DNA from: an uncultured Verrucomicrobiae bacterium
GTDB taxonomy: Bacteria > Verrucomicrobiota > Verrucomicrobiia > Limisphaerales > JAFGQR01
Length of the DNA stretch: 64,000 bases
Reading direction: 5' to 3'
Assembly: GCA_963788655.1 (NCBI GenBank)
Contig: CAWBHS010000060.1
Span: 32,001 to 96,000 of the forward strand
The position numbers and the translations under genes are program-made. A model generated the notes under the pieces. The model was given only the letters and a program-made list of their open reading frames with translations. It was not told where the DNA came from and searched no databases. Shown here piece by piece: positions 22,717 through 40,149 of the stretch (its first letter is position 1; each line of letters begins with the position of its first letter).

Positions 22717-24304
22717 ATGTGGAACCTTTCTTCGATCCTCCGCTCCCAATGGGAACGTTCCTCCATCCGCCGCTTGTTTACTTGGCGCACTATCCGGCGG
22801 TTGCTGCTGGTCGGCGCCGGTATCGTGACGCTGGTGGCGCTGTTTTACGCCGTTGAGAATTGGCGCGGCACCCATGCTTGGAATAAATATCGTCGCACTC
22901 TCGAAGCTCGAGGCGAGAAACTGGACCTGCCTGCCTTGGCTCCGCCAACCGTGCCCGACAACCAAAATCTGGCGATGGCGCCGGTGCTTAAACCGCTGTT
23001 CGATTTTTCCCAAGACACAAACGGCATTCGGTATCACGATACCAACGGATTGGAACGGTTGCGGAATGTTGACATTTATCAGCGCGGCGTCACACGAGAT
23101 AAGCATGCGGATTTGGGAGGTTTGGTTAACGGAACGTGGACCGACTTGGCGGGATTTGCAGAGTTCTACCGTGGGAACACCAATTACCCCCAAGCCGTGA
23201 CGGGCAGTCCGCCAGCGAAAGTGGTGCGCGTGGCGTTGAGCAAGCTTGATCCGCTGATCCACGAATTGCGGAAGGAGGCGGCCGCGCGGCCACTGAGCCG
23301 GTTTCCAATCGACTATGATGAGGAAGTGACTGTTTCTATTTTGTTGCCCCATTTGGCGACTTTAAAGAACCTGGCTTCGGCACTCACTTTGCGCGCCATT
23401 GCTGAGTTGGACGTGGAGCAATCGTCGGCGGCGCTTGCGGAACTCGAACTGGGATTTCGATTGTCGGACACCATCAGTCGCGAACCGCTGCTCATTGATC
23501 ATCTCGTCCGCCTGGCCATGTTGACGATTGAGCTTCAGGGGGTTCGCGAAGGGCTGGCGCGGCACGCTTGGGGTGACGCTCAGTTGGCAGCGATTCAAAA
23601 ACACTTGTCGTCATTAAATCTGCTGGCGGAACTTCAAAACGCAATTCGGGGAGAACGGGCCATCGAGGTGGGCATGCTGGATTACGCCCGCCGGCAAGGG
23701 TGGCGGTTTGACCCGGGAATGATCCTCTCGGACGAAATGTTCCTCTCAGACGAGGAGCAACAGCCACTGGCGCCGGTGCTGGCCCTTCGGCAGATGCCTG
23801 GTGGTTGGTATTGCCAAAACATGCTCCGAATCGCGCGGTTGTTGACCGACTACGGCCTGGCGGCAGTGGACGCACCGGCCAAGCGGGTTGACCCAAAGCC
23901 GAGTGAGCGTGCCGACAAGATTGTCGAAGAGATGTCCTATGGTCCGTACACCTTTTTCGTGAAATTACTCTTTCCGAATAGCAACAGATTGACGGGCAAG
24001 AGTGCGGCGTCACAAACATACGTGGATTGCGGGCGAATTGCCTGCGCTTTGGAACGGTATCGTTTGGCCAAGGGACACCTCCCCGAGTCGTCTGGCCGCG
24101 TTGGTCCCGCAGTTTATCGAGGCGATTCCGCACGATGTCATCGACGGCAGACCGCTGCGATACCATCTGTCACCGGAAGGCGGCTACGTGTTGTATTCGA
24201 TTGGCTGGAATCAAACGGACGACGGCGGCGTGCGCGGCTGGCGCTCCGATAAACATCGCAGCGTGGATTTGGAAAAGGGCGACTGGGTGTGGAGCCTGGA
24301 GTGA
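22717..24304 (+). CDS. Membrane-anchored hypothetical protein with GspG-like C-terminal segment (~528 aa; apparent frameshift at ~24088)
   Basis: N-terminal TM then ENWRG..W..GEKLD..PPTVPDNQN; C-terminus ACALERYRLAKGHLPE-(shift)-LAALVPQFIEAIPHDVIDGRPLRY..YVLYSIGWNQTDDGG. Confidence 0.7.
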
Positions 24305-24348: not shown

Positions 24349-25722
<1,374 letters not shown>

Positions 25723-25725
25723 GGC

Positions 25726-27280
25726 TCAAGCGTTGGCCGCGAGCCGCAGGTGGGTCAGGCGGAAGATGGCGCCTTGAGGCTCATTCGGCCAGGCATTGGA
25801 TTTCCCAGCCGTGGGCCAGCACGATCTGCTGCACCACCGCCAGACCCAATCCGGTGCCCTTGAGGTTGGTGGTGAAGTACGGCTTAAAGATGTCGGAACG
25901 ATGCTCCGCGGGAACTCCCGGGCCGTTGTCGCGAATCTCCAGCACGACCTCGCCGGCCTCGCCCTTCTCCGCGAGCACTTGAATCTCCCCCTGCTTGCCG
26001 ACGGCCTGGACGGCGTTGAGCAGGAGGTTGAACAGGGCCTGGCGGAGGAGCTGCTCGTCGGCCTTGATCAGCGGCAAATTGTCCTGGAGGCGCAACTGAA
26101 TGGCCTTTTCTTCGACATCGTAATTCAAGGCGCGCACCACCTCGCTGACCACGGAATTCAGCGCCACCGCCGAGCGGCGAACTTCGCGCGGCCGGGAATA
26201 GTTGATGAACTCGTTCAATTGGGCGGTGACCCGGTCAGCTTCATCGACGATGCTGTGCGATTTCGACCGCACTTCCGGCGGGGCATCCTCCTGTTTGGAA
26301 ATGATCTGGGCCAGGCCGCGGATGATGTTCAACGGATTCTTGGTTTCGTGGGCCAGGCCCGCGGCGGCGAAGTTCATTTCCTTGAGCCGCGTATTCAACT
26401 CGGCGGTGCGCACCAGCCGGAGTTCCAGGTCCGAGGAACGGTTCAAGTTGCTCCAGGCGAGTCCCAGGCCGACCACCGAAACGGACGCCAGACCACCGAT
26501 GATGAGTCGCAGCCATAAATCGCGGCCCAACGCCTCACGCTTCTTGGCGGTGGAAAAGACTACCACGAAACTGTGGACGCCTTGTTTCTCAATCGCCTTC
26601 TGGTATTCCTCCTCGCTCATCCAGAAGGGTCGCCCAAAGGGCGGGCGACCGTGACGGTTCCACCCACGCCGGCGGGGTAGGGGATCGACATTTTCAGTCG
26701 CGTTGGTAAGCACCGCTACCCCGTTGCTCACCACCTCCGTTACCTGCGGTCCTGGTTCCGGCCGGTTGGCGAAGCGACCACCATCCGTTTCCGAATCCGG
26801 CGGGCGCGGCGGTGGCGGAGGGCGATTGGCGTCACGTTCGGGCGTCCGCACGATGATGGTGGAACGGGAACCTTCCACTTCGGAGGCCACGTTCGTGCCC
26901 AGATCAACCAGATTCATCAAAGCCACGGAGCGCCGATCCCAATGCTCGCCGGTTCGGATCAGACTGCTGGTATCGAACTCGATGGGCGTGCCGGCGGAGG
27001 CGACGACTTCGCCGGCACTGTTCAACAGGGCGATGGCGTTGAGTTCACCGGGCTTGATCAAGGCCTTGAGGGCGGTTTCCATCCGGTCCATGGGAATGAC
27101 GCCAAACCGGCGTTGAGAACGCATGACCACGCCCAGGGTGGTCGAAATATATTTGGCGCTGTTGATCAACCCTTCGTCTTCGACCCGCCGGACCCGGGTG
27201 TGCTCGACGACTTGCCAGACGAGGATCATGGCCCAAACCACCAGCAGTGCGCCGTAAACCAGTTGAGTCCGTGTTTTCAT
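25726..27280 (-). CDS. Two-TM sensor histidine kinase (apparent frameshift at ~25789)
   Basis: H-box AGLAHETKNPLN, N-box NLLLNAVQA, DNGPG, GTGLGL. Removing one base restores the terminal strand CLPNEPQGAIFRL..A-TGA (25726-25728), directly before the regulator start. Confidence 0.9.
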
Positions 27281-27312
27281 AATGGGCCGCAGCCGGAGGG
27301 CCGCAGCGAACG

Positions 27313-28515
27313 CTATTTCTTCTTTTTCTCTTCGGCGGCACTGTCTTTAGTCGGCAGATCATCAAGAAAGCGATCCAGTTCCTGTTCGGTGTAGGATTTG
27401 GGCACCAATTGGAGCTGCGACCTCTCTTTGGCCGTCATCCCGGCCAACTGGGCCGGCTGTTGCACAATATGCGGCGTGAGGAAGATCAGGAGTTCGGTTT
27501 TGACGTTGTCTTTGATTTTACGTTTGAACAGCATGCCCAGGAGGGGAATGTCGCCCAAGAGCGGAACTTTGCTTTCCGATTCCGTGGCGCGGTTCTCCAT
27601 CAAGCCGCCAATCACCACCGTCTGCCCATCGGGCGTCAGCACGACGGTATCGGCGGTGCGGGAATTGATAACCGGCGCATCGTAGCCGGCGGCAATCGCT
27701 ACCTTTTGATCGGATAAATTTGAGATCTCCGGGGACACCACCATTTCCACCATGCCTTGCGAAGTAATGAACGGGGTCACCCGCAGGATAATCCCCACCG
27801 GTTGGTAGGAAACGGAGTTAATGGCATTGCCGAAGTTGTCGTAACGCACATTGGTGATCAGGGGAATTTCCTGGCCCACGGTGATGATGGCCTGCTGATT
27901 GTTGCGAGCCAGGACGGACGGGCGGGAGAGCACTTCCGTCTTGCCCGCGGTGGCGATGGCCCGCAAGGTGACTTGGAAGTCGCTGCCGAGGACTTGATAC
28001 AGCCCGGCTCCCGGCGGCGTGGGGGCGAAGCTCTGCACCGGCTGGCCGAAGGGATTCGAAACCAAGCCGGTGGAACTGGCCAAGCCCGACAGACCGAATG
28101 CATTGACGGCCTTGCCCTCGATGGAATCATTGATCCCCTGACGGGTTCCGCCCTCGATGCCGACGTCGTAACCTTTCCGATAGGTGACTTCCAGGAAGAC
28201 CACCTTGATCAGCACCTGCGGCGCCGGCCGGTCCAAGTTGGACACCACCATGCTGATGTATTTGGCGGTGTCATCGTCGGTGACCACGACCAGTTTGCGC
28301 GTTTCCGGATCCACTTGAAACGTCGCCGTGCCGAGTTCGGTGCCGCTGGGATAGTTGGCGCTGCCGGTGCCGCCGGTCGAGCCGGACCGGCGCGTGCCGA
28401 AGCCTTGCGCGGTGGCACTCTCCGTCATCCAGCCAAGGCCGGCCAGTAGCAGGGCCGCCAGGCCGATCCAAGTTTTAATGTTCTGCTGCATTCCAAGATG
28501 ATGTTTCGTTTGCAT
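27313..28515 (-). CDS. gspD: Type II secretion secretin, C-terminal half (one N-domain plus secretin barrel) with its own signal peptide
   Basis: Signal-like TWIGLAALLLAGLG..ATAQ; LDRPAPQVLIKV, LSRPSVLARNNQQA, VGIILRVTP, VVIGGLM, KVPLLGDIPLLGMLFK and ELLIFLTPHIV are secretin motifs. Confidence 0.9.
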   Translation of the reverse strand: MQTKHHLGMQQNIKTWIGLAALLLAGLGWMTESATAQGFGTRRSGSTGGTGSANYPSGTELGTATFQVDPETRKLVVVTDDDTAKYISMVVSNLDRPAPQVLIKVVFLEVTYRKGYDVGIEGGTRQGINDSIEGKAVNAFGLSGLASSTGLVSNPFGQPVQSFAPTPPGAGLYQVLGSDFQVTLRAIATAGKTEVLSRPSVLARNNQQAIITVGQEIPLITNVRYDNFGNAINSVSYQPVGIILRVTPFITSQGMVEMVVSPEISNLSDQKVAIAAGYDAPVINSRTADTVVLTPDGQTVVIGGLMENRATESESKVPLLGDIPLLGMLFKRKIKDNVKTELLIFLTPHIVQQPAQLAGMTAKERSQLQLVPKSYTEQELDRFLDDLPTKDSAAEEKKKK

Positions 28516-28535
28516 AGTGCTTTTGATTCGGTTGC

Positions 28536-30349
28536 TCAACGACCGGTGGAATTGCCGAAGCTATTACCCAAACCGCTGTTGCCCCCAAAACCACCGCTGG
28601 TGCGGGAACCCTGGTTTTGCATCTGGGTGGCGCGGTTGTTCAACTGGTTGCCGGCCTGCCGGCTGTTATTGAGGTTATTGCGGTTGGCTCCGGACGCGTT
28701 ATTGTTGGGGCTGGGAATGAGGCCTTGAAGGAGTTGCTGAACGGTTTGCGGGTCGGTGTTCTCCAACGAGTACACATAGACCTTTTGTTTCCGGGCCGGA
28801 TCCATATCCAGTTCGGTGATCATGCTCGCAATTTGCGGCATCAGGTCCCGTGACGCACTCACGACCACCGAGCGGGTCCGCATGTCCGGCACGGCGGTGA
28901 CCTGGGTTTCCTTCAGTGTCCGTTCGCTTTGGTCGCCGTTATTGCTCGTCCGTCCACCGCCCGGGAAGCCGCCAAACCGCCCGCCGAATTGGAAGCGGCT
29001 GCCGCGGCGGCTTTGATTGCTGGTGTTATTATTGGGAAACAGATTCGAGAGCAAATCCGCCGTCTCCTGGGCGTCGGCGTTTTTCAGGTGAAACACGCGC
29101 ACCTCGGTGATGTCTTCGACGTTGGTATCCACCTGCTTGACCACGTCTTCAATGATCGAAATCTGCTCGGCCGGCGCGCTGACCACCAGGGAATTACTGC
29201 GTTCGTCGGCTACGGCCACCACTTTGACGGTGGGCGCACGGCCTCCGCCACCACTGCTCCCCCCACCGGAGTCATCTCCCCCCATTCCCGGCGGACCCCC
29301 ACGGCCGCGGAAGGAAAACCGGTTGCGGCCATTGTTGCGGGAATTGTCGTCCTGCGCAGCGAAGAGATCCTTGATGGTGGACGCCAGGGCTTTGGCATCG
29401 GCATATTTAAGCGGGAACACCCGCACCGTGGCCACGCTCTGGAGCGCGGTATCCAGCGCTTGCACAATCTCCGCCATGCGGCGAATGTTGATTTGCGTGT
29501 CGGTGATCACCAGCGAATTACCCCCCTGATTGGCGGACATTTGCGCCGAGGTCGGCAAGAGCGGTTGGAGGTCGCGGGTCAGTTGGGTGGCGTCGATGTA
29601 CTTGACCGGGATGATCTGGGTGACGATTTCCTCGCTTTGCGGAATTTTGTCCGGATCGCTCCCCATTTTGACGGGGATGTTCCGGGTTCTCGCTTGATCC
29701 TTATTAATGATGACCAGCATGCGGCCATTTTGCAGGGCGGCGAACCCATTCTTGCTGAGAACCGAATTCAACACGTCGATGGCCTCGTCCTTGGTCAACG
29801 GTTGGTTGCTCCACACGTCCACTTTGCCCCGGACGTCCACCTCCGGCACAATGATGAAGCCGGCGGCGTCGCTCAGATAATTCAGCACCATTTCCAACGG
29901 GGCGTTCTTGAAGTTCAGCCGCAGTCCTTTCTCGCCGTCGGCCACCACGTGGTCGGGCGGAGGCGGGAATTGCATCAAGTCACCGCCCGGCGGTTCGCCA
30001 GCGGGGCGGGACGGGGTTGCGGGGAGCGGCGCGGCTTGATTGGTGCCGACCGCCAAGGCATTGGTGGCTGAGGGGAATTGGTTGGCGGCGTGGGCCCGAA
30101 TTCATCGGGCGAGGCCGGTTCTTCCCCAAACTCGGGTCCCGATTGCTGGTCCGGGAATTGGTTCGGGTTGGGGATTGGCATGGCCTCATCCAGGTTCGTC
30201 GGAGGCTCGCCGGGGAACTGAGGGGCAACCTCGTCCGTGGGCTCTGCCGGCGACGGTTCCGCCGGGGGATTAGAGGATTGGGCGGCGGCGGTGAGGATCA
30301 ACCCCAGCCCGCAGCCCAAGGACGCGAAAATTAATTTTGGTGTTTTCAT
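28536..30349 (-). CDS. Secretin N-terminal-domain protein (N0 plus NolW-like N domains, no barrel; apparent frameshift at ~30073)
   Basis: Signal peptide MKTPKLIFASLGCGLGLILTAAAQ, Pro-rich linker, N0 (LNFKNAPLEMVL), repeated N domains (VFPLKYADA..ADERSNSLVV; VFHLKNADA..DMRTRSVVV), ending in an N/G-rich tail with a genuine stop. Confidence 0.8.
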
Positions 30350-31119
30350 TTCAATTCCTGTGCTCGCTTTTCCATTAGTCGTTTGAGGATATCTTTTTCT
30401 TGGTCGCTGGAGAGGGTGGGCGCTGGCGTGCTGGGCGCGGTGCTGGGAACAGTTTCCGTGGAAACGGCGCGGCGCGGATCGAAGCCACGGGAGCCGCCCC
30501 GGCGAGAATCAGACGCCGACGCGCGCGGATCGAAACCTCGGGATCCGCCCCGGCGGGAATCGAAGCCCCGCGAATCGTCGCGACTGGACTCGCTCCGGCT
30601 ACTGGTGCTGGAATACGTTTCGGTCGGTTCCCGCACCTGCCACGGGCCGTCGTTTTCCCGTTGCAGTTGCATCCCCACTTTGAGTTCCACTTGGTTGGTG
30701 TTCGCTTCGAGCTTCACCTGGTTGGCCTCGATCGCGGCCACTTTGTAATCCGCAATGCTTCCGCCGGGCGGTACAATCTTGCGGTATTCGGAACTCGAGC
30801 TATCGAAGAAGGCAAACGGTCCCTTGCGGTAGCTCATCGTGCCGACCAGCGTGAAGGCCTCCACCCGGGCGGGGGGCGGCGGCGGCTCGTAGGTGCGGGC
30901 CGGGGGACGACCGAATCGGTTGGCGTTGAAAATATTTCGTTCGGCGATGACCTGAAACGACGAGTAATCCAACGGCCCCTGGGCGCCAGCGGGGCGGGCG
31001 GCGGCAAGGTAACTTCCCGCCACGATTGTGACGAGCAGCGTCCAACGGCCCAGGCCGGCCGAGGTCTTTCTCATTGGCCGCGAATTGTTCGTGATCGGTT
31101 CGAGGGTTACGTGAATCAT
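30346..31119 (-). CDS. GspC-like T2SS assembly protein (alternative start 31074)
   Basis: Operon position before the secretin; hydrophobic N-terminus, RNIF motif, TLVGTM..AFF beta region; low-complexity R/G/S-rich tail. Confidence 0.55.
   Translation of the reverse strand: MIHVTLEPITNNSRPMRKTSAGLGRWTLLVTIVAGSYLAAARPAGAQGPLDYSSFQVIAERNIFNANRFGRPPARTYEPPPPPARVEAFTLVGTMSYRKGPFAFFDSSSSEYRKIVPPGGSIADYKVAAIEANQVKLEANTNQVELKVGMQLQRENDGPWQVREPTETYSSTSSRSESSRDDSRGFDSRRGGSRGFDPRASASDSRRGGSRGFDPRRAVSTETVPSTAPSTPAPTLSSDQEKDILKRLMEKRAQELK
30472..30561 (-). repeat. Intragenic direct repeat (2 x ~39 bp, 51-bp period) encoding DSRRGGSRGFDPR
   Basis: GCGCGGATCGAAGCCACGGGAGCCGCCCCGGCGAGAATC (30472) and GCGCGGATCGAAACCTCGGGATCCGCCCCGGCGGGAATC (30523). 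Confidence 0.75.
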
Positions 31120-31646
31120 GGTGCCGGATTCAATTGCAGGCCGCTGACCTGGAGGGCGAGGGCCAATTGTTCGCCGCGGTCGTCCCGCGCGGTGATATTG
31201 ATGGTTTCCACTTTCAGCCCCAAAGGCGACTTCTCGACTTCATAAAGAAAGCGTGTCAAGGCGGGCAAAGTGCCGAACGCATCAACGCGGCATTCCAACG
31301 TGGCGTACTGGTCCAGATTGCGGCGCCACTGCGGTTTGATGGAACTGATCCCAATGCGGCTGTCGCGCGACCAGCGGTCAAACGCGCTAAGCACCTGGTT
31401 TTCCGCCACGGACACTTCCGTCGGCAGGGTGTTGGTGCGCATGTTTTCCCAGCGCGTCCGGATGGCATTTTGCCGATCCAAGAGCAGCCCCCCCTGGTTC
31501 ACCTGCCGCTTCAATTCGGTGATCCGTTCCGCGCGGCTGTTCCACGCCCGCGTCAAGGGCGTCAGGACCAACCGGTCACCCACCAGCAGCGCCAGGGCCA
31601 CGATGGCAATAATGGCCAGTAATTGTTGTCGGTTGTTCTTGTTCAT
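31116..31646 (-). CDS. GspM/PilO-like T2SS inner-membrane platform protein
   Basis: N-terminal TM, coiled coil, GTLPALTRFLYEVE..LKVETINIT ferredoxin-like domain; ATGA overlaps on both sides. Confidence 0.7.
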   Translation of the reverse strand: MNKNNRQQLLAIIAIVALALLVGDRLVLTPLTRAWNSRAERITELKRQVNQGGLLLDRQNAIRTRWENMRTNTLPTEVSVAENQVLSAFDRWSRDSRIGISSIKPQWRRNLDQYATLECRVDAFGTLPALTRFLYEVEKSPLGLKVETINITARDDRGEQLALALQVSGLQLNPAP

Positions 31647-33109
31647 CGGTTGCCTTGTCCGCCCCATTGAAAGTTGAAGGTAAATTGAATCGGCGACTTG
31701 CCGCGAATCGTTTCGAGTTGCACGTCGTTCACTTCGGGCGCGGTGCCCAATTTGTCGAGTGTGCGCAGCAGGACTTGGTTGTCCCGGGCGGTGCCGGAAC
31801 AGGAAATGGTGCTGGCGGCGCGGATTTCCACCGTCTTGGCCGCCACCGCGCCGTCTTCCGGAAAGGCCTCGGTGAGCTGTCGCAAGATGCTGAGCGAGCG
31901 GCAGGACTCATCGAACCAGGGCCGGAATTTCTTAATTTGCTGCTGCATGGTTTCCAGTTCGGTCACTGGCGTTTTGATGGCGGCCCATTTGGAGCGCCAA
32001 CGAACAAGCTGCCATTGTTGAAAAAGCAATACCAGCCCAAACAACAGGACAATCGCGCCGGCGGTGAAGCCGACGGAAGTGAGTTTGCGCGAGGCGTACT
32101 TGTCGGCGAATTGCTTCCAAGCACTGATCTTCGGCGGCAGGAACTCGAAGCCTGTGGTCCGCCCGGCCAGGAATTCGAGCGCCAGGCTGAGGGCAGGGGA
32201 AACCGGGGTACCGGCCGCCACCTGCACCCCCAGACCCTGGGGTTTGCAGTCGCGCACCAGTTCCACCTCCATCCCCAGTGGTTTCATCCGGGACTGCAGT
32301 TGTTCGGCCAATTCCTCGGCCACGTCACTGCGGCCAAACACCCGCAAGGTCCGGAGCGTACCGCGCAGTTCCGCGGGCAATTGCCCGAGGGTGATTCGTA
32401 CCTCCCGGGCCAGGTGATCGGCCTGCACATGTTTTTCGGCGCCCACCACTTCGAAGGCCCCTTCCACGGTGCGCAACGCCGCCACGCCGCCTTCGCCCGC
32501 CACCAGCAGGCCAATGTGGTTCTCGCCCGGCACCAGTGCAATCGAACTGGCCGCGGATTCGGCGTCGGTTTGTTGCAACGCCACGATGCCGAGGGAAAAA
32601 CTGACCGGCCGCAGTTGCGCTGCTTTCAAGGCCGCCTCCAGGCGCGTCACGTGGTCGCGGGGGATGCCGAGCAGCGTGGCGTATTTCTCGCCTCCTGGGG
32701 TGGCATAGTGCGAGGTGCAACGCATCAACGTCTCGGGGCTGTACGGGAAGCCGCGTTCCGCTTCGATTTGGAGGAAACTGTCCAGGTCGGGACCTTCGAG
32801 TTCAGGCACGGGAGTGAAATGACTCAGCATCCAGCTCAACGGCACGCACACGACGCACCAACGCTCGCGAACTTCCGCCGCGTCCAGGTGCTTGCGAATT
32901 TCGCGCCCCACCAATTGCGGATCATCAGTCAACGGATCGAGCGACAGGGAAACGGCGGCGGTGTGTCTGACTTCCACATGCCCATTGGTCCGGCGCAGCC
33001 ACACGAGTTCCAGGCGTCCGGTATCAAACGAAAGCCCGAGCAGCGAAGACCCCGGTTGCCGTTTGAACGGGGTCATCTTGCTCACATCAAATTTCAGCAG
33101 GTCAATCAT
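31643..33109 (-). CDS. GspL-like (PilM-PilN type) T2SS platform protein
   Basis: Actin-like cytoplasmic region (LQIEAERGFPY, LEAALKAAQLRP), FEFLPP motif, TM, coiled coil and a PilN-like domain (ISCSGTARD). Confidence 0.75.
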   Translation of the reverse strand: MIDLLKFDVSKMTPFKRQPGSSLLGLSFDTGRLELVWLRRTNGHVEVRHTAAVSLSLDPLTDDPQLVGREIRKHLDAAEVRERWCVVCVPLSWMLSHFTPVPELEGPDLDSFLQIEAERGFPYSPETLMRCTSHYATPGGEKYATLLGIPRDHVTRLEAALKAAQLRPVSFSLGIVALQQTDAESAASSIALVPGENHIGLLVAGEGGVAALRTVEGAFEVVGAEKHVQADHLAREVRITLGQLPAELRGTLRTLRVFGRSDVAEELAEQLQSRMKPLGMEVELVRDCKPQGLGVQVAAGTPVSPALSLALEFLAGRTTGFEFLPPKISAWKQFADKYASRKLTSVGFTAGAIVLLFGLVLLFQQWQLVRWRSKWAAIKTPVTELETMQQQIKKFRPWFDESCRSLSILRQLTEAFPEDGAVAAKTVEIRAASTISCSGTARDNQVLLRTLDKLGTAPEVNDVQLETIRGKSPIQFTFNFQWGGQGNR

Positions 33110-34572
33110 CGTTGGTTGTTGGCCAGAAGTTTCAGATCGTCGCGGACCTCCCGGCCCAGGGCCCAGCCCAGATGCGTGAGGTCTTGCCGGTAAACAATCC
33201 GGGGCATGCCGTCGCTGGTGTCGAAGACATATCTCACCCGTTGGTAGCCGCGGCCATAGTGGCCCACGGCGGCGATGTCCGCGGTAAATTGATAACTGTG
33301 CCCCGTCAAATAAGGCCCCGCTTGGAGGGCATTGGTCCCCTCAAGCACCTCGGCCACCCAGGCCAGGGACGGCGCATAAGACAGCGACGCTTGGTTCGCT
33401 AGACGATGGGCCACGAGCGTGCCGGCATTCTCCAGGCCAATGCCGGGGATGCACGCCAGCACGGCCTCGCTGGCCGTGTTCACGTTCACCAGTCCAGCAA
33501 CCGGGCTGTTCGTGCTCGCGGTGATGTCGTATTCAATCTGCGCAAATTCGTCGGACGTCATCCCGCTCTTCATGTAGAACTCGAGCACGCTGCCGATGGA
33601 ATTCGAGGTGCCGGAGGCGTTGCCGCCGCCATCGGGTTGGTCCTGGTTGCCGCCGACGTTGCCGGCCCCGCCGTCTCCGCCCGGTACGCCCAGTTGCTGC
33701 AGGATTTGGTTCGCGCGATCCGCGCCGAAGGTGTCCTGCAACAGAGTGGCTAAATCTTGTTGGTTGGTACTGTTGACGTTGATGCGGGGTTCGCCGTTGG
33801 TGCGGGTGGTCGGTTCCGCGCTATAAACGGTCACGTATTCCAACAATCCGGCGTTGAGCCAGCCATCGCTGTTGTCATTGGGCGGTGAAAGGTCGCCGTC
33901 GCCTTCGTTGGGGTCGAGCACGCCGTTCAAATTGGCGTCTTCGCCAAACAGATAGTCGAGGTTCATCCCGTAGACCAGGCGCAGTTCGTCCACCGATTCG
34001 AAGTTCGCGTTTTTGCACCGGTAAGGTGGATTGAGCCGCTCGTACAAATCGGATTCGGCACCGCCATCGGACGGATCGCTGTCGGAGTCGCGCCAGTCGA
34101 TGATGGCGGCCGCCAGTTCCGGAGTCATGTTCGGCAGCATCTCCAGCATTTCCAACGTGGCGGTATTCAGGTTCAATTTCGAGGCTTCATCCACCAGGCC
34201 AAAGACCGGTTCATCCTGGGCAACTTGCTGGTCCGGCCGGCCAATCAACCAGAAGTAGGTGTCGTCCACGGGCACCGCTTCGTAAAGATACGTCGTGCGG
34301 TCCGGCAGTGTCCCCGGCACTTGGGCGGTGGCGAGGATGTTGCTGACGTACCGCGCGGCGCCGGCAATGGCTTGCCCCGCTTCGATGCTGGCGACACGAT
34401 TGTCGGCGGCGCGCAGTTCGAACGTCATTGATGAAGCAAAATACAGCGCCAGGCTCACCAAACCGAACGCCACCCATAGGACGATGATCAACACCGATCC
34501 TTCGCCTGACGCAACCACATCCCGACGGTTGCGAGTACGCGGACAACGGCGGTTAGAGGTGGGCAACATCAT
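33106..34572 (-). CDS. gspK: Minor pseudopilin GspK
   Basis: G|SVLIIVLWV cleavage site, DEASKLNLNTA, AAAIIDWRDSD, FESVDELRLV and VNVNTASEAVL HhH motifs. Confidence 0.9.
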   Translation of the reverse strand: MMLPTSNRRCPRTRNRRDVVASGEGSVLIIVLWVAFGLVSLALYFASSMTFELRAADNRVASIEAGQAIAGAARYVSNILATAQVPGTLPDRTTYLYEAVPVDDTYFWLIGRPDQQVAQDEPVFGLVDEASKLNLNTATLEMLEMLPNMTPELAAAIIDWRDSDSDPSDGGAESDLYERLNPPYRCKNANFESVDELRLVYGMNLDYLFGEDANLNGVLDPNEGDGDLSPPNDNSDGWLNAGLLEYVTVYSAEPTTRTNGEPRINVNSTNQQDLATLLQDTFGADRANQILQQLGVPGGDGGAGNVGGNQDQPDGGGNASGTSNSIGSVLEFYMKSGMTSDEFAQIEYDITASTNSPVAGLVNVNTASEAVLACIPGIGLENAGTLVAHRLANQASLSYAPSLAWVAEVLEGTNALQAGPYLTGHSYQFTADIAAVGHYGRGYQRVRYVFDTSDGMPRIVYRQDLTHLGWALGREVRDDLKLLANNQR

Positions 34573-35363
34573 GGCTGCCCTCCGCTGGTTTGGTCGGTTT
34601 GATTGGTGGACTGCTGGACCACCATCGGCACGACCAGTTCGATTGGGTCCACCAGTTGCGGGACCGCCGATCCTGGATTGTCCGAGGCCAATTGAATTTG
34701 CACTTTGATGGCCTGGGGCAAATTGTTGGTTTCCGCGCTTGAATCCCAGGTTTCCATCCATTGGGTGCCATCGTAGAACTGGAAAAAGATGCTCTGCACG
34801 CCGCCCAGGAGCCATTGATCTTCCGATTGCTCTTGCAGCGTGGGCAGCAGGTTGCGGGTGACCGACCGATAGAGATCCATGCCGAAAGTGTTGTTCGTCG
34901 GCTCGGCCAGGTAGTAATACACTTTCTCGACCTCACCCCATGGTTGGTAATCATCGATGATGCCACTGGCGGTGTAAAACTCCGGGCTGGCTTGGCCTAG
35001 TGAAATGGCTCCTTCACCGGGCGCGGTCTGCCCTAATTGACTGAAGCTCGTCGAGGTGGTGGTGGTATTAGTGGAGGTGGACGAGGTTGGGGACGTTTGC
35101 AAGCCCCCGAACAAAGTCCCACCCGGCAATACCAGGTTGGCCAGATCGCGTTGCATGATCGCGAGCGTTTGCTGCAACGGCAACGCCGCCTCAATCGCTT
35201 TCGTGGTTTTGTTGCGCAGCCGCAGGGCTCCGTAGAAAACTCCGTGAATCGCCAACAACACAATCGAAAAAATGGCGACCGCCAACAGAATCTCCAGCAA
35301 CGTAAACGCGCGTGGCGGAACAACCGCGACGTTCCTGGAGTGTTGATGGCGGGAGGCGTTCAT
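34569..35363 (-). CDS. gspJ: Minor pseudopilin GspJ
   Basis: A|FTLLEILLAVAIF, MQRDL, FQFYDGTQW..W and LPQAIKVQI motifs. Confidence 0.85.
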   Translation of the reverse strand: MNASRHQHSRNVAVVPPRAFTLLEILLAVAIFSIVLLAIHGVFYGALRLRNKTTKAIEAALPLQQTLAIMQRDLANLVLPGGTLFGGLQTSPTSSTSTNTTTTSTSFSQLGQTAPGEGAISLGQASPEFYTASGIIDDYQPWGEVEKVYYYLAEPTNNTFGMDLYRSVTRNLLPTLQEQSEDQWLLGGVQSIFFQFYDGTQWMETWDSSAETNNLPQAIKVQIQLASDNPGSAVPQLVDPIELVVPMVVQQSTNQTDQTSGGQP

Positions 35364-35884
35364 TGCAGTGAAGTATCCACCAAAGTGCTCAGCCGAATGT
35401 CGTAATTCTGTCCCTGCACCGGGAAGGTCACCAGCACGGTGAGCAGGCGCAGGACGCCTTGGTTCCACGGTTCCAACTGGATCTGCCATTCGTAGTCCAA
35501 TACGCCTTCGTGGATGGTTCCTCGCTGGGAGGCAGACTGCCATTGCCGGGTGACCACCAATTCGTTCAACACCCGTTCGCCAATGCGGGCGGCGATGGCC
35601 TTGCGTTCGCCCAACTGTCCGGCCCGGTTGGCAATCTGCAAACCGTGAACGGCCACCGGAATCACAATGGCCATGAACAAGAGCGCCGCCAACACCTCCG
35701 CCAGCGTAAACCCGCCGCAGGCGCGGTTTTTCCTGGGGCTCGGACTACGTTGGAACCGTGTAGTCGCCGAGGTGACGAGGCGGATTGGTCGGGGCCCACA
35801 GTCCCCCCAGTCCGCCTCCTCACGTCGTCGGCTACAGGCGGCCGGTGTTTCCGCCAGGGCGTGAAATGTTCGGGGCAGCTTCAT
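35360..35884 (-). CDS. gspI: Minor pseudopilin GspI with an unusually long leader
   Basis: G|FTLAEVLAALLFMAIVIP; position between H and J; 58-aa leader containing a REP element. Confidence 0.8.
   Translation of the reverse strand: MKLPRTFHALAETPAACSRRREEADWGDCGPRPIRLVTSATTRFQRSPSPRKNRACGGFTLAEVLAALLFMAIVIPVAVHGLQIANRAGQLGERKAIAARIGERVLNELVVTRQWQSASQRGTIHEGVLDYEWQIQLEPWNQGVLRLLTVLVTFPVQGQNYDIRLSTLVDTSLQ
35759..35836. repeat. REP-like inverted repeat (family B) inside the gspI coding region
   Basis: TGTAGTCGCCGAGGTGACGAGGCGGA (35759-35784) and TCCGCCTCCTCACGTCGTCGGCTACA (35811-35836), 22/26 complementary; span 78 bp. Confidence 0.8.
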
Positions 35885-35893
35885 CGCTCGCGG

Positions 35894-36469
35894 TTATCGG
35901 CGAATCTGTTCCAGAATGTTGGTTTCAATGTCATAGTTCAGCCGGTTGCGGCTCCGGCCGATCCAAATCATGTCGTTCTCCCCCTGCCGAAAGAGGATAT
36001 ACTCAGGACTGGTTTCGCCGATAAAACCCGCCGGAGTGAACCGGATGGTGGGCAGCTTGCCGACCAGTTGGACGGTGCGCCGCCAAGGAGTGACCAGCGT
36101 ATTGGTCAGGGACAATTCCACTTCCACGTCCAGGTCGCGGGCCAGTTCGAAGCTGACGGCGTTGGTGTCGTCTTCTTCATAAGTGCTTTCCGCCATCAAT
36201 CCATAGCGGCGTTGTTCTTGATCAATCCACAGCAGCATCGGCACGCCCTCCGCGACCGCACGGTTCCGACCGTAACGGGCCAGCGCCAAAAACCGATGTG
36301 CTTCCGAATCGAGATTGCGCCCGCGAAAGAACCGCGCCAGCGACGGCGCGCCGATTGCGAGCACGACCACCAGCAGCGCCATGACCAGAATCAACTCGAT
36401 GAGCGTGAAGCCACGGGCGGACGCGTCACGGCCGGCGCTGATTCGGCAGTTGCCAATTCGTAATGTCAT
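35894..36469 (-). CDS. gspH: Minor pseudopilin GspH/FimT-like
   Basis: G|FTLIELILVMALL..P, LARYGRNRAVAEG and IRFTPAG motifs. Confidence 0.85.
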   Translation of the reverse strand: MTLRIGNCRISAGRDASARGFTLIELILVMALLVVVLAIGAPSLARFFRGRNLDSEAHRFLALARYGRNRAVAEGVPMLLWIDQEQRRYGLMAESTYEEDDTNAVSFELARDLDVEVELSLTNTLVTPWRRTVQLVGKLPTIRFTPAGFIGETSPEYILFRQGENDMIWIGRSRNRLNYDIETNILEQIRR

Positions 36470-36938
36470 CTTCGGTTCCATCGCGGCCGTCCGCTCCCAC
36501 GGTCATCAAGTCGTACGAGCTGGGGTTGTGCCGGCCGGGGCATTCATAAATGTAGGCGTTGCCCCACGGATCCAGTGGAATTTGGCCCTTGAGATACGGC
36601 CCCTTCCAATTCTGCGCGTTCTGCGGTTGTTGCACGAGATCCTGCAAGCCATCTTTGCCCTTCGGATAATAACCATTGTCCACCTCGAACGCATCGAGCG
36701 CCGTACCGAAGGTGGAGATCTGGGACTGAGCGGCGGTTTGCCGGGCTTGCTCGGTGCGACCGGAGAACTTCGGCACCACCACCGCCGCCAGAATGCCCAG
36801 GATCACCAGCACCAACAGCAGCTCGATGAGGGTGAAGGCAGCCTGGCTCCGCGGGCACCGCCCCGCAGAAAGGCGTCCGTTCCGGATGATCGGTGAGCGA
36901 CAAGGTTCGGGTTTGAATCGGGAGTCTTTGATTTTCAT
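36426..36938 (-). CDS. gspG: Major pseudopilin GspG
   Basis: A|FTLIELLLVLVILGILAAVVVP, ALDAFEVDNGYYP, NWKGPYL, DPWGNAYIY..PG and GADGRDGTEDDITNW motifs. Confidence 0.95.
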   Translation of the reverse strand: MKIKDSRFKPEPCRSPIIRNGRLSAGRCPRSQAAFTLIELLLVLVILGILAAVVVPKFSGRTEQARQTAAQSQISTFGTALDAFEVDNGYYPKGKDGLQDLVQQPQNAQNWKGPYLKGQIPLDPWGNAYIYECPGRHNPSSYDLMTVGADGRDGTEDDITNWQLPNQRRP

Positions 36939-36958
36939 GTGAACGTTCCGTTCCGTTT

Positions 36959-38212
36959 TTATTTGATGTAATCCTGCAAGGTGAAGATTGGGATGACCAT
37001 GCCAATGAAGATGGTGCCGATGAATCCGGCGATAAAAAACAGCATCAGCGGTTCGGCCATGGCTACGGCAGTCTTCAGACGGCGGTCGAGGTCTTCCTCC
37101 GTGACGTTGGCGATGCGCACCAATTCCTGATCCAGCCGTCCGCTTTCCTCGCCAATCGAAATCATTTCGAGCACCGAACCCTGAAACAACGTGCGGCACT
37201 CGGAGAGGCTTTCGCCCAGCGCCTTGCCTTCTTTCACGCGCTCAATCGAATTCGACACCGCGTCCACCAGGATTTGATTACCGATGGACCGGCGGGCGAC
37301 ATTCAGCCCATTGACCAGCGGCACACCGGCGCCCAGCAGCGTGCCGAGCATGCGGCAAAAGCGGGCCATGGCAAATTGCGCGGCCAGCGAACCCACGACC
37401 GGTGATCGCAAGATCAATCCTTCCCACGCTCGCCGTCCGGTGGTGGAAACGAACCAACTGCGAATCATGTAGCCGATGATAAATACTCCCAGCAACAGGA
37501 TCAGACCGTAAGTGCGGAGTGCGTCGCTGATCGATACGATGATTTGGGTCAGCAAAGGCAGGTGACCGCCAAAGCCTTGAAAGATGGTTTGGAACCGGGG
37601 AATGAAGAACACGAGCAGGAAGGTCAGCACGCAACTCGCAAGGCACAGGAGAATGGTGGGATACAGCAAGGCCGTCATGACCTTCGACCGCATTTCCTTT
37701 TCCCGCGCCTGGAAATCGGCGATCTGGCCCAGCACCACGTCGAGAAAACCACCGGTTTCGCCAGCTTCCACCATCGCTACGTAAACGCGCGGGAACGTTT
37801 CCGGTGACTTCGCCATCGCGTCGGCCAGCGACATGCCATCGACGACCAGATCGTGTACTTCTTTCCACTTGGCCTTGGCCACGGGAGTCGAAGCTTCTCT
37901 TTGTAGAATGACGAGCGCCCGGCTCAACGGCACGCCCGCGGCCAACAGGCTGGCCAGCAGACGGGTGAAATTTTCCAGAATCCGCGCCGAGATTTTATTG
38001 GCGCCGCCCAACGACAATTTGAACGACATCGGCGAACCGTTGACCTGGCCCTTGGCTGTCGGGGCTTTGCCATTGCCGCGCTCGGTCAGGCTGATTGGCC
38101 GCAAACCGCGGCCTTCCATCGTGCGAAAGGCTTCCTGGCGGCCCCCGGCCTCGAGCTGGCCTTCGGCGATGCCGCCATCGGTTTGCAATGCTCGGTATTG
38201 AAAAACGGGCAT
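36959..38212 (-). CDS. gspF: T2SS inner-membrane protein GspF
   Basis: MPVFQYRA, LLAAGVPL, MVEAGETGG, ALLYP, GEESGRL, EPLM and IPIF motifs. Confidence 0.93.
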   Translation of the reverse strand: MPVFQYRALQTDGGIAEGQLEAGGRQEAFRTMEGRGLRPISLTERGNGKAPTAKGQVNGSPMSFKLSLGGANKISARILENFTRLLASLLAAGVPLSRALVILQREASTPVAKAKWKEVHDLVVDGMSLADAMAKSPETFPRVYVAMVEAGETGGFLDVVLGQIADFQAREKEMRSKVMTALLYPTILLCLASCVLTFLLVFFIPRFQTIFQGFGGHLPLLTQIIVSISDALRTYGLILLLGVFIIGYMIRSWFVSTTGRRAWEGLILRSPVVGSLAAQFAMARFCRMLGTLLGAGVPLVNGLNVARRSIGNQILVDAVSNSIERVKEGKALGESLSECRTLFQGSVLEMISIGEESGRLDQELVRIANVTEEDLDRRLKTAVAMAEPLMLFFIAGFIGTIFIGMVIPIFTLQDYIK

Positions 38213-38357: not shown

Positions 38358-40100
38358 TCATGGCTGGGCCACCGCCACATCTTCCGCCGCGTTGTCTTCG
38401 ATGCCGCTCACCAAAGACTGAGCTTTCGTCACGCGCAACACTTCTTCGGGCGTGGTAATTCCGAGGCGCACCAACCGCCAACCATCATCGGCCAACAGGC
38501 GCATTCCGGCGCGCTGGGCCGCCTGGCGAATTTGGTCGGCCGAACTGTTCTTCAATACCATTTGTCGGATTTCATTGTTGGCGTCCATCCACTCGAAGAT
38601 GGCCCGCCGGCCAAAATAGCCGGTTTGCCGACACTCGCGGCAGCCAACCGCGCGGTAAATGGGCGTGTCAGACGGAAAGCCAAGTTGTTGCTTGAAGGCT
38701 CGCGCGGTGGGTGAGGTGTCTTCCTGTTTGCAATGATCGCACAGCACACGAACGAGCCGTTGCGCCAGCACGGCTTCGAGCGAAGAGGCCACCAAGTAAG
38801 GTTCGACGCCCATGTCCACCAGGCGGCTTAGCGCACCGGCGGCGTCATTGGTATGCAGCGTCGAGAACACCAGGTGGCCCGTCAGCGAAGCCTGCACGGC
38901 GATTTGTGCCGTTTCCTGGTCGCGGATTTCACCGACCAGAATCACATCGGGATCATGACGCAGAATCGAGCGCAAGCCGCGGGCAAAGGTCAGCCCCGCC
39001 TTCTCCGAGACTTGAATTTGGTTGACGCCCTTGAGTTGGTATTCGACGGGATCCTCAATGGTGATGATCTTGCGTACAGCGTCGTTGATCTCGTTGAGCG
39101 CCGTGTAAAGTGTCGAGGTTTTGCCACTGCCCGTCGGGCCGGTCACCAGGATGATCCCGTGCGGCAATCCCAGCACCCGGCGAAAGCTACGGACTTCCCG
39201 GGCGTCCATGCCCAATTCCTGCATGCCCCGCAGCGTGGCGTTTTGCCGCAGCAAACGCAGCACCACCGCTTCGCCGTGCAGCATGGGGATGACCGACACG
39301 CGGATGTCCACTTCGCCGTCGTCCACGCGGATTTTGATGCGCCCGTCCTGGGGCAAGCGTTTTTCCGCGATGTTGAGATGGCTCAGAATCTTGACGCGCG
39401 AAACAATGGCCGGTTGGAACCGTTTGATTTGCGCGGGCACCGGAATTTCCTGGAGCACGCCGTCAATGCGGTAGCGGATGCGAAGCTCATCTTCGAACGG
39501 TTCGAGATGGATGTCCGAGGCACGCAGTTCGATGGCGTCGCGAAGCACTTGGTTGACGAAGCGGATGATTGAGGCGTCTTCCGCAGCGGTATCGAGATTG
39601 TTGTCGTCCTCCGAGGTGTCATCGACTACCTGGAACGGCGCTTCTTCATCGAGCGTGTCGATGGTGTCGGCCCCAACACCCAGGCGTTTTTTCATTTCCC
39701 GCTGGATGGCCTCGGAGGGAGCGAGCACCGGCTTGAGCCGCAGGCCGGTCATCGTCTTGAGAGTATCCAGTCCTTGGGTGGCGAATAGTCGGCTGGTGGC
39801 GACTTCCACGCAGCCGTTGATGCGCCGCAGCGGGAGCAATTCATCCTTGAGCAGCACCCGGGCGGGGAACAAGGACAACACCTCTTTGTCGGGTTGCACG
39901 TCCTCCAAAGAGGTGAAGGCCAAATCGTATTCCTGCGCCAACCAGCGCAAGACATCTTCCTCCGACCGAACCGGCGCGTGTTCCCCGTTGGACTGGCACC
40001 GGGAAAGTTCCTGGGCGTCACTGGCGGACAGTTGCCTGCCCACCACCATTTGCTCCAGCAATTCACTGAGGGCCGGAGATTCTGAGGACACGGAATTCAT
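38358..40100 (-). CDS. gspE: T2SS ATPase GspE
   Basis: ASDIHLEP, RLPQDGR, GPTGSGKT, TIEDPVE, LRHDPDVILVGEIRD, TGHLVFSTLHTN and Zn-binding CxxC..CxxC. Confidence 0.95.
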   Translation of the reverse strand: MNSVSSESPALSELLEQMVVGRQLSASDAQELSRCQSNGEHAPVRSEEDVLRWLAQEYDLAFTSLEDVQPDKEVLSLFPARVLLKDELLPLRRINGCVEVATSRLFATQGLDTLKTMTGLRLKPVLAPSEAIQREMKKRLGVGADTIDTLDEEAPFQVVDDTSEDDNNLDTAAEDASIIRFVNQVLRDAIELRASDIHLEPFEDELRIRYRIDGVLQEIPVPAQIKRFQPAIVSRVKILSHLNIAEKRLPQDGRIKIRVDDGEVDIRVSVIPMLHGEAVVLRLLRQNATLRGMQELGMDAREVRSFRRVLGLPHGIILVTGPTGSGKTSTLYTALNEINDAVRKIITIEDPVEYQLKGVNQIQVSEKAGLTFARGLRSILRHDPDVILVGEIRDQETAQIAVQASLTGHLVFSTLHTNDAAGALSRLVDMGVEPYLVASSLEAVLAQRLVRVLCDHCKQEDTSPTARAFKQQLGFPSDTPIYRAVGCRECRQTGYFGRRAIFEWMDANNEIRQMVLKNSSADQIRQAAQRAGMRLLADDGWRLVRLGITTPEEVLRVTKAQSLVSGIEDNAAEDVAVAQP

Positions 40101-40149
40101 GAACAGCGCGCGCGGTTGGATCGAAGATACGTCTGCGAATGGCAAGGGG

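Follow-up and report, generated by a model that had tools for sequence, protein, structure and literature searches.

GspD, the secretin belonging to type II secretion systems (T2SS), forms a gated outer-membrane pore of roughly 15 subunits through which folded proteins are secreted. Canonical GspD is a single chain with the domain order N0-N1-N2-N3-secretin. Here we describe a GspD that is encoded by two adjacent genes, the upstream gspD-N and the downstream gspD-C, on the minus strand of a 64,000-nucleotide stretch of DNA from an uncultured Verrucomicrobiae bacterium (assembly GCA_963788655.1, contig CAWBHS010000060.1, positions 32,001 to 96,000). This whole stretch is called the window below. 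An earlier reading of its letters, referred to as the original prediction, had proposed that the secretin is naturally split into a periplasmic protein and a barrel protein, each of them exported.

Secretins divided between polypeptides have been described in other systems. In the mitochondrial T2SS (miT2SS) of some protists, the secretin is divided into GspD/GspDL and GspDN1-3 (PMC8134430 and PMC10128026, both available in excerpt). GspDN3 is reported to be the N-terminal half, and GspDN2 the C-terminal half, of a Secretin_N domain (PMC8134430, in excerpt). The type III secretion system (T3SS) of the rhizobial type has a "split secretin" made of RhcC1 (NolW) and RhcC2, and the available parts of PMC3574062 and PMC3973906 state that the purpose of the split is unknown. 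Abby and Rocha described RhcC2 as Tad-like with a BON domain, the result of a partial gene replacement (PMC3459982, in part). A full-text literature search returned only these two cases, the Rhc T3SS and the miT2SS, and no account of a split secretin in a bacterial T2SS or type IV pilus; most subscription journals were outside its scope. A 2023 review, in the portion available, presents the bacterial T2SS pore as an oligomer of a single polypeptide and separate N-domain proteins as specific to eukaryotes (PMC10128026).

The secretin of the window carries N0, N1, N2, N3 and half of a further N domain on one chain, and the other half followed by the barrel on the second chain. It is a real, conserved two-chain variant of GspD that is widespread in Verrucomicrobiota. 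The N0 and Secretin_N domains are all on the upstream protein, the secretin barrel is on the downstream protein, and T2SS partner genes lie directly upstream on the same strand. Among PDB entries, GspD chains are the best match for the N part (E 4e-19), and they match the barrel at E 6e-38 and below. With the GspD model TIGR02517, GspD-N covers profile positions 1-270 (220.3 bits) and GspD-C covers positions 268-600 (244.6 bits), each below the cut-off of 351.35. No single polypeptide of the window reaches the equivalog cut-off; a stop codon and a spacer stand between the two genes. The PilQ model TIGR02515 gave 175.9 and 64.4 bits against its cut-off of 284.35, and both proteins score higher with the GspD model. 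The T3SS secretin model gave 113.8 bits compared to 244.6 bits for GspD, and the neighboring genes are those of a T2SS.

Compared to canonical GspD (XcpQ, PDB 5wln; PulD, 6hcg; E. coli GspD, 5wq7), the domains, their order and the operon partners are the same, and in XcpQ, too, N3 carries a Gly-rich loop at the corresponding site. The canonical protein is one polypeptide, whereas the secretin of the window is two, with one extra N domain and a second, putative signal peptide. Like RhcC1/RhcC2 in the portions of those papers available, the window pair has an N-terminal piece and a barrel piece on separate genes. However, the Rhc genes lie apart in a T3SS cluster, while the window pair is adjacent, GspD-like in both members and abutting inside one domain. 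The nearest architectural parallel is the miT2SS, as far as the excerpts go, since Secretin_N half-domains appear to sit on separate polypeptides there as well as here. This is an analogy of architecture only. The miT2SS genes are nuclear genes of eukaryotes whose products are targeted to mitochondria, and they come without N0 and GspC, whereas the operon of the window is bacterial and has N0 and a GspC-like protein.

At the junction, the gene positions, the N/G/Q-rich tail with its stop codon and the 20 nt from the TGA to the next ATG (28515) are as the original prediction had them. A second in-frame ATG (28491), 44 nt past the TGA, is the start conserved among homologues and the one used in the database's own gene call. 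In an alignment with 25 homologues, the Ala/Gln (-1/+1) cleavage site of GspD-C is near-invariant, the linker behind it is variable and Gly-rich, and the half-domain is conserved. The hydrophobic region (h-region) of the signal peptide forms a helix in the AlphaFold2 (AF2) model.

To see how far the split recurs, related loci were sampled with one genome per species. There were at least 599 pattern matches and at least 511 confirmed relatives, and the best 80 loci were kept. Verrucomicrobiota labels, including Limisphaerales and Akkermansia, are attached to 68 of the 80; the other 12 bear different, unconfirmed names. In 79 of the 80 loci the barrel gene has a homologue of the N protein directly upstream, encoded on the same strand and closed by a stop codon before the barrel gene begins. 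A fused or read-through open reading frame (ORF) was found in none of the 80, with one locus (L012) having too little upstream DNA to judge. The relative frame of the two genes is the same in 31 loci, +1 in 36 and +2 in 12, and since all three occur, a shared frameshift cannot account for the split. The spacer measures 4-809 nt with a median of 39 (77 loci) and is at most 100 nt in 70 loci. The second signal peptide, which had also been predicted, is a putative one called by heuristics: a hydrophobic h-region opens 79 of the 80 barrel ORFs, and a small-x-small/Q site was matched by regular expression in 75. Recurrence in 79 of 80 related loci takes the arrangement far beyond chance. These findings strongly support the claim that the split is a natural, conserved gene fission and not a sequencing or indel error.

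The upstream protein varies more than the split itself. In the 66 related loci with a pickable start, the signal peptide, a P/A/T-rich linker and N0 are in one ORF of 371-600 aa, and 12 of these 66 N proteins are 432 aa or shorter, that is, one N domain fewer. In two loci about 805 nt, instead of about 40, separate the secretin genes (L037, 2768-3578; L047, 5054-5860). In L047 both secretin genes are intact across the spacer of about 800 nt, which holds no convincing gene.

Artefact or decay, with a normal single-chain gspD broken by an assembly indel or by a recent pseudogenising mutation, is already contradicted by these loci, and we consider it extremely improbable. Frame problems do occur in the contig, at the 5' end of gspD-N and likely at 22717-24304. 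At the junction the frames of the two ORFs differ, and a TAG (28563-28561) lies in the downstream frame 8 codons upstream of 28539. This stop and the differing frames mean that a single fusing indel would be confined to about 20 nt. All 79 informative loci, which come from different species, are split, in all three frames and with a putative signal peptide on the second gene, and searches without length restriction gave no close fused form. Recoding, by which read-through or programmed frameshifting would make a single chain, is just as hard to credit. The short spacer and the shared frame in 31 of 79 loci could allow it. However, the relative frame is not conserved, the spacer length varies over the range given above, and a fused product would hold a cleavable signal peptide in mid-chain.

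Database searches showed the same division. With the barrel protein as query, a word-index search scored 8000 candidates, of which 6385 reached E <= 0.001. Setting aside the protein itself, the 119 best relatives are 324-462 aa long and 57-73% identical, and all have PF00263, with PF03958 as well in only one. Barrel-only proteins are often labelled "hypothetical protein" or "GspD". The best 120 relatives of 687-2000 aa are 37-48% identical (222-292 bits), and those with names are mostly Planctomycetota (Humisphaera, Tepidisphaeraceae, Phycisphaerae). Both window proteins are matched by 119 of these 120, collinearly in 118. True single-chain relatives come no closer than the Planctomycetota GspDs (P0123-P0240), whose N domains share the long, low-complexity loops. 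Over the barrel they are 37-48% identical, compared to 57-73% within the split family, and their loop has neither a stop codon nor an internal signal peptide.

These relatives bear on whether the two genes come from one. As proposed for RhcC1/RhcC2, the barrel protein could have been acquired from another system, so that the split would be a replacement and not a fission. The Rhc proposal is a precedent (PMC3459982, in part), but we regard this origin as very unlikely here. Both proteins have the same single-chain relatives, with the collinearity just given, and both score best with the same GspD model at abutting profile coordinates. The genes are adjacent, Pfam finds no BON domain on the barrel protein, and each end of the cut aligns with one end of the same loop. 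The two genes descend from a single ancestral gspD that was cut within a disordered loop.

Two apparent fusions were rejected. P0122, considered as a fused sister, has an out-of-frame, R/P/H-rich middle followed by an intact internal signal peptide. It is a frameshifted read-through of a split-family member, and its place in the tree is beside the split clade. P0121 looks chimeric, with the front of a GspE running in mid-domain into the barrel. Such read-through or chimeric entries can pass as fused forms and mislead surveys of domain architecture. The tree itself was made with FastTree from the barrel region (88 rows, midpoint root). It sampled 30 of the 119 split proteins, 42 of the 121 that are fused or mid-length, and 15 of the 66 giants; the fused or mid-length pool was the 119 long relatives P0122-P0240 plus P0353 and P0379. 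One branch, with Shimodaira-Hasegawa-like (SH-like) support of 97, separates the 31 split rows from all the others. Giant secretins group with the split clade (SH-like 96), a grouping that is not to be read as ancestry in a midpoint-rooted tree.

The cut falls inside a domain. The original prediction gave the barrel protein one N-type domain. Only the second half of such a domain is present, at Secretin_N profile positions 31-69 of 69 in Pfam (E 0.005). This half has the AF2 secondary structure strand-strand-helix (E-E-H) and aligns with the second half of N3 in XcpQ (PDB 5wln, residues about 286-325); it gave no significant match to N2 (E 1.2). Across the cut is the first half: GspD-N residues 420-448 align with the first half of the protein's own N3 (E 4e-6) and, in single-chain relatives, with strand 1-helix 1 of the last of the N domains. 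Aligned with these relatives, the two pieces lie on either side of a single long loop, rich in S, T, G and N, within the N domain preceding the barrel. The GspD-N tail aligns with the first part of this loop and the GspD-C linker with the second part.

Both orphan halves are conserved to the same degree as whole N domains. Column identity is 0.70 in the first orphan half and 0.76 in the second, compared to 0.68-0.74 in the halves of whole N domains and 0.44-0.47 in loops, tail and linker (0.45 in the tail). In AF2 models, the whole N domains of GspD-N have a predicted local distance difference test score (pLDDT) of 86-94, while tail residues 449-506 and the loops at 236-273 and 347-375 are below 50. 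The orphan halves modelled alone reach 51-60; for the GspD-N half (54-60) only the helix forms and strand 1 is absent. These identities and models support a joint fold of the two halves. As a separate observation, each GspD-N domain after N1 (29118-29441 and 28800-29117) has a disordered loop of 30-40 residues, rich in Gly, Phe, Asn and Arg, at a position equivalent to the cut.

We favor a true fission of gspD in the ancestor of a large Verrucomicrobiota lineage, with halves that re-form one N domain in trans, and put its probability at about 0.62. The cut lies between helix 1 and strand 2 of the N domain immediately beneath the barrel (the canonical N3 position), in a loop that is long, disordered and rich in Gly, Asn and Ser. 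Strand 1-helix 1 stayed with the upstream gene, along with the signal peptide, N0 and the whole N domains. The downstream gene retained strand 2-strand 3-helix 2 and the barrel, and acquired a start codon and its own putative Sec signal peptide. Both products would be exported by Sec and pair in the periplasm, which would rebuild one N domain. The rebuilt domain would then link the outer-membrane pore non-covalently to the N0-N3 vestibule and, by way of N0, to the GspC-like protein. According to the available part of PMC8134430, N3 is required for pore assembly. Because of this reported requirement, an assembly checkpoint could follow: with half of N3 supplied in trans, pore assembly would depend on the arrival of the vestibule subunit. 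Trans-complementation is a plausible, still hypothetical mechanism.

Several points weigh against this reading. The original prediction had asked whether the beginning of the barrel protein complements the incomplete last N domain. The profile coordinates, collinearity and conservation fit, but no result shows that GspD-N and GspD-C bind, and the complex prediction counts neither way. For GspD-N 314-456 with GspD-C 56-100, from separate alignments and run without controls, it gave ipSAE values of 0.30 and 0.28 compared to the mark of 0.32. The GspD-C half-domain is under the Pfam gathering threshold (17.4 compared to 28.2 bits). A 56-residue fragment of the GspD-N tail has no Pfam match even at E 10, and the half-domain in this tail gave no BLASTP alignment to N2. 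The AF2 monomer model of GspD-C is poor, with a mean pLDDT of 57.1. Signal peptides were called from hydrophobicity and a regular expression, without a trained predictor. The relatives examined are metagenome-assembled genomes throughout, and the sample holds 80 of at least 511 confirmed related loci. Finally, gspD-N is frameshifted in the window, and as assembled its product has no signal peptide.

A two-piece secretin without complementation is possible, though we find it distinctly less probable. GspD-C would form the pore alone and GspD-N a separate ring that docks transiently or by other surfaces, with the half-domains kept for a different contact; this corresponds to the detachable vestibule of the original prediction. 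This explanation agrees equally well with a conserved split and separate, conserved export signals. The free tail (58 residues) and the linker (25 residues) are long and disordered, making a loose tether conceivable, and the number of N domains varies between relatives. However, a strand-helix of 29 residues and a strand-strand-helix of 37 residues are unlikely to fold alone, yet they are conserved like whole N domains, and the two halves map exactly onto one domain in single-chain relatives.

A bolder version of the trans-complementation reading is speculative and, in our judgment, rather unlikely. Pore and vestibule would be separately assembled modules, with strand 1-helix 1 as a "snap fastener" that serves as a checkpoint or as a reversible coupling of the machine's outer-membrane and inner-membrane parts. 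Fifteen copies of the free N/Q/G/F-rich ends and the similar loops of every N domain might together make a disordered meshwork inside or around the vestibule. The loop of the cut might also be a general hot-spot for fission, which would give the half-N-domain proteins of the miT2SS a bacterial precedent. The original prediction had suggested a detachable vestibule that spans a wide periplasm or handles very large cargo. No evidence for this was found; the chain has one N domain above the canonical number, and the shorter N proteins among the relatives have one fewer.

A conserved two-chain GspD in a large bacterial lineage contradicts the single-polypeptide generalisation of PMC10128026, as given in the portion available. 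It also provides a natural setting in which to study how the barrel and the periplasmic rings come together, and whether pore assembly is driven by N3. Genomes with a split gspD may be mis-scored when automatic T2SS detection looks for one secretin gene, because neither half reaches the GspD cut-off alone.

The upstream gene is less straightforward in the window than in its relatives. It has the N0 domain and three whole N domains, as expected from the original prediction, but its own 5' end is out of frame. The frame with the signal peptide runs to a stop at 29975-29977, whereas that of N0 opens no earlier than 30101. Because the linker is unconserved, the frameshift is placed only to within 29978-30101. 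An assembly indel is the likeliest cause, since relatives have one ORF there and the neighboring gene at 22717-24304 also appears to shift frame; a real pseudogene is less likely. The frameshift is 1.5 kb away from the split and has no bearing on it. Coordinates are collected in Table 1; the ORF limits of the operon genes are mechanical, and several 5' ends are probably too long.

Table 1. Features of the two gspD genes and of the T2SS operon in the window, with the related loci listed for N-domain number
Feature	Position	Strand	Remarks
gspD-N main frame	28536-30101	-	PF21305 + 3x PF03958; ORF 28536-30056, open to 30101
gspD-N 5' piece: signal peptide and Pro-rich linker	29975-30349	-	other frame than rest of gene
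Bracket holding the gspD-N frameshift	29978-30101	-	overlap of two open frames
gspD-N N0 domain	29682-29927	-	PF21305, E 3.1e-13
gspD-N N1 domain	29442-29633	-	PF03958
gspD-N N2 domain	29118-29441	-	PF03958
gspD-N N3 domain	28800-29117	-	PF03958
Strand 1-helix 1, orphan first half of last N domain (GspD-N residues 420-448)	28713-28799	-	
N/Q/G/S-rich disordered GspD-N tail (residues 449-506, 58 residues)	28539-28712	-	followed by TGA 28536-28538
Intergenic spacer	28492-28535	-	44 nt to conserved ATG 28491
gspD-C	27313-28491	-	392 aa, database gene call; mechanical ORF 27313-28539
GspD-C signal peptide	28408-28491	-	heuristic; basic n-region, 16-residue hydrophobic core, A-x-A/Q site
Gly/Ser/Thr-rich linker of mature GspD-C (25 residues)	28333-28407	-	column identity 0.44
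Strand 2, strand 3, helix 2: orphan second half of last N domain	28222-28332	-	
Secretin barrel region	27460-28221	-	PF00263, E 2.1e-49; TIGR02517 profile 268-600
Conserved C-terminal extension and stop codon of GspD-C	27313-27459	-	alignment; two short low-confidence helices in AF2
gspE	38358-40145	-	NCBIfam/Pfam match
gspF	36959-38212	-	NCBIfam/Pfam match
gspG	36426-37199	-	NCBIfam/Pfam match
gspH	35894-36481	-	NCBIfam/Pfam match
gspI	35360-35884	-	NCBIfam/Pfam match
gspJ	34569-35543	-	NCBIfam/Pfam match
gspK	33106-34815	-	NCBIfam/Pfam match
gspL/PilM-like	31643-33109	-	NCBIfam/Pfam match
gspM	31116-31667	-	NCBIfam/Pfam match
gspC-like	30346-31119	-	NCBIfam/Pfam match
Loci listed for N-domain number: L016-L018, L022, L023, L025, L026, L028, L030, L032, L045, L046			

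N-only proteins are also found in protein databases. GspD-N was searched exhaustively with phmmer against 1.84 billion cluster representatives, and 10692 proteins reached E <= 0.001. Of the 150 best representatives, 80 have fewer than 700 aa, with signal peptides, N/Q/S/T/G-rich tails and no secretin domain; none of the short proteins among these 150 has one. Another 63 of the best 150 are giant secretins (P0241-P0472) of about 2,700-6,165 aa, in which a signal peptide and N0 are followed by 19-45 matched N-domain stretches and, at the C-terminus, the barrel. At E <= 0.001 there are 372 proteins of at least 3042 aa. Where named, the giant secretins come from Phycisphaerae/Planctomycetota metagenome-assembled genomes. 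No paper about them was among those listed by a literature search.

The minus strand of the window holds a complete T2SS operon, gspE-F-G-H-I-J-K-L-M-C, with the two gspD genes at its end. NCBIfam matches were obtained for GspE, F, G, H, I, J, K and M, mostly below the equivalog cut-offs, alongside GspC-like and PilM/GspL-like proteins. A promoter and terminator scan of 27000-30600 gave no minus-strand site, with counts at or below those of shuffled sequences, and is uninformative on co-transcription. On the plus strand, the ORF at 22717-24304 (511 aa) ends in an Arg-rich, junk-like tail, and a protein-like continuation lies in another frame (ORF 24002-24304); this gene is likely the site of a second frameshift in the contig. 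Directly after the barrel gene, on the same strand, is a sensor histidine kinase (25781-27280, minus strand) with a weak match to the "T2SS_HK" subfamily. A sigma-54-dependent response regulator (24349-25722, minus strand) lies next to it. The two may be regulators of the secretion operon.

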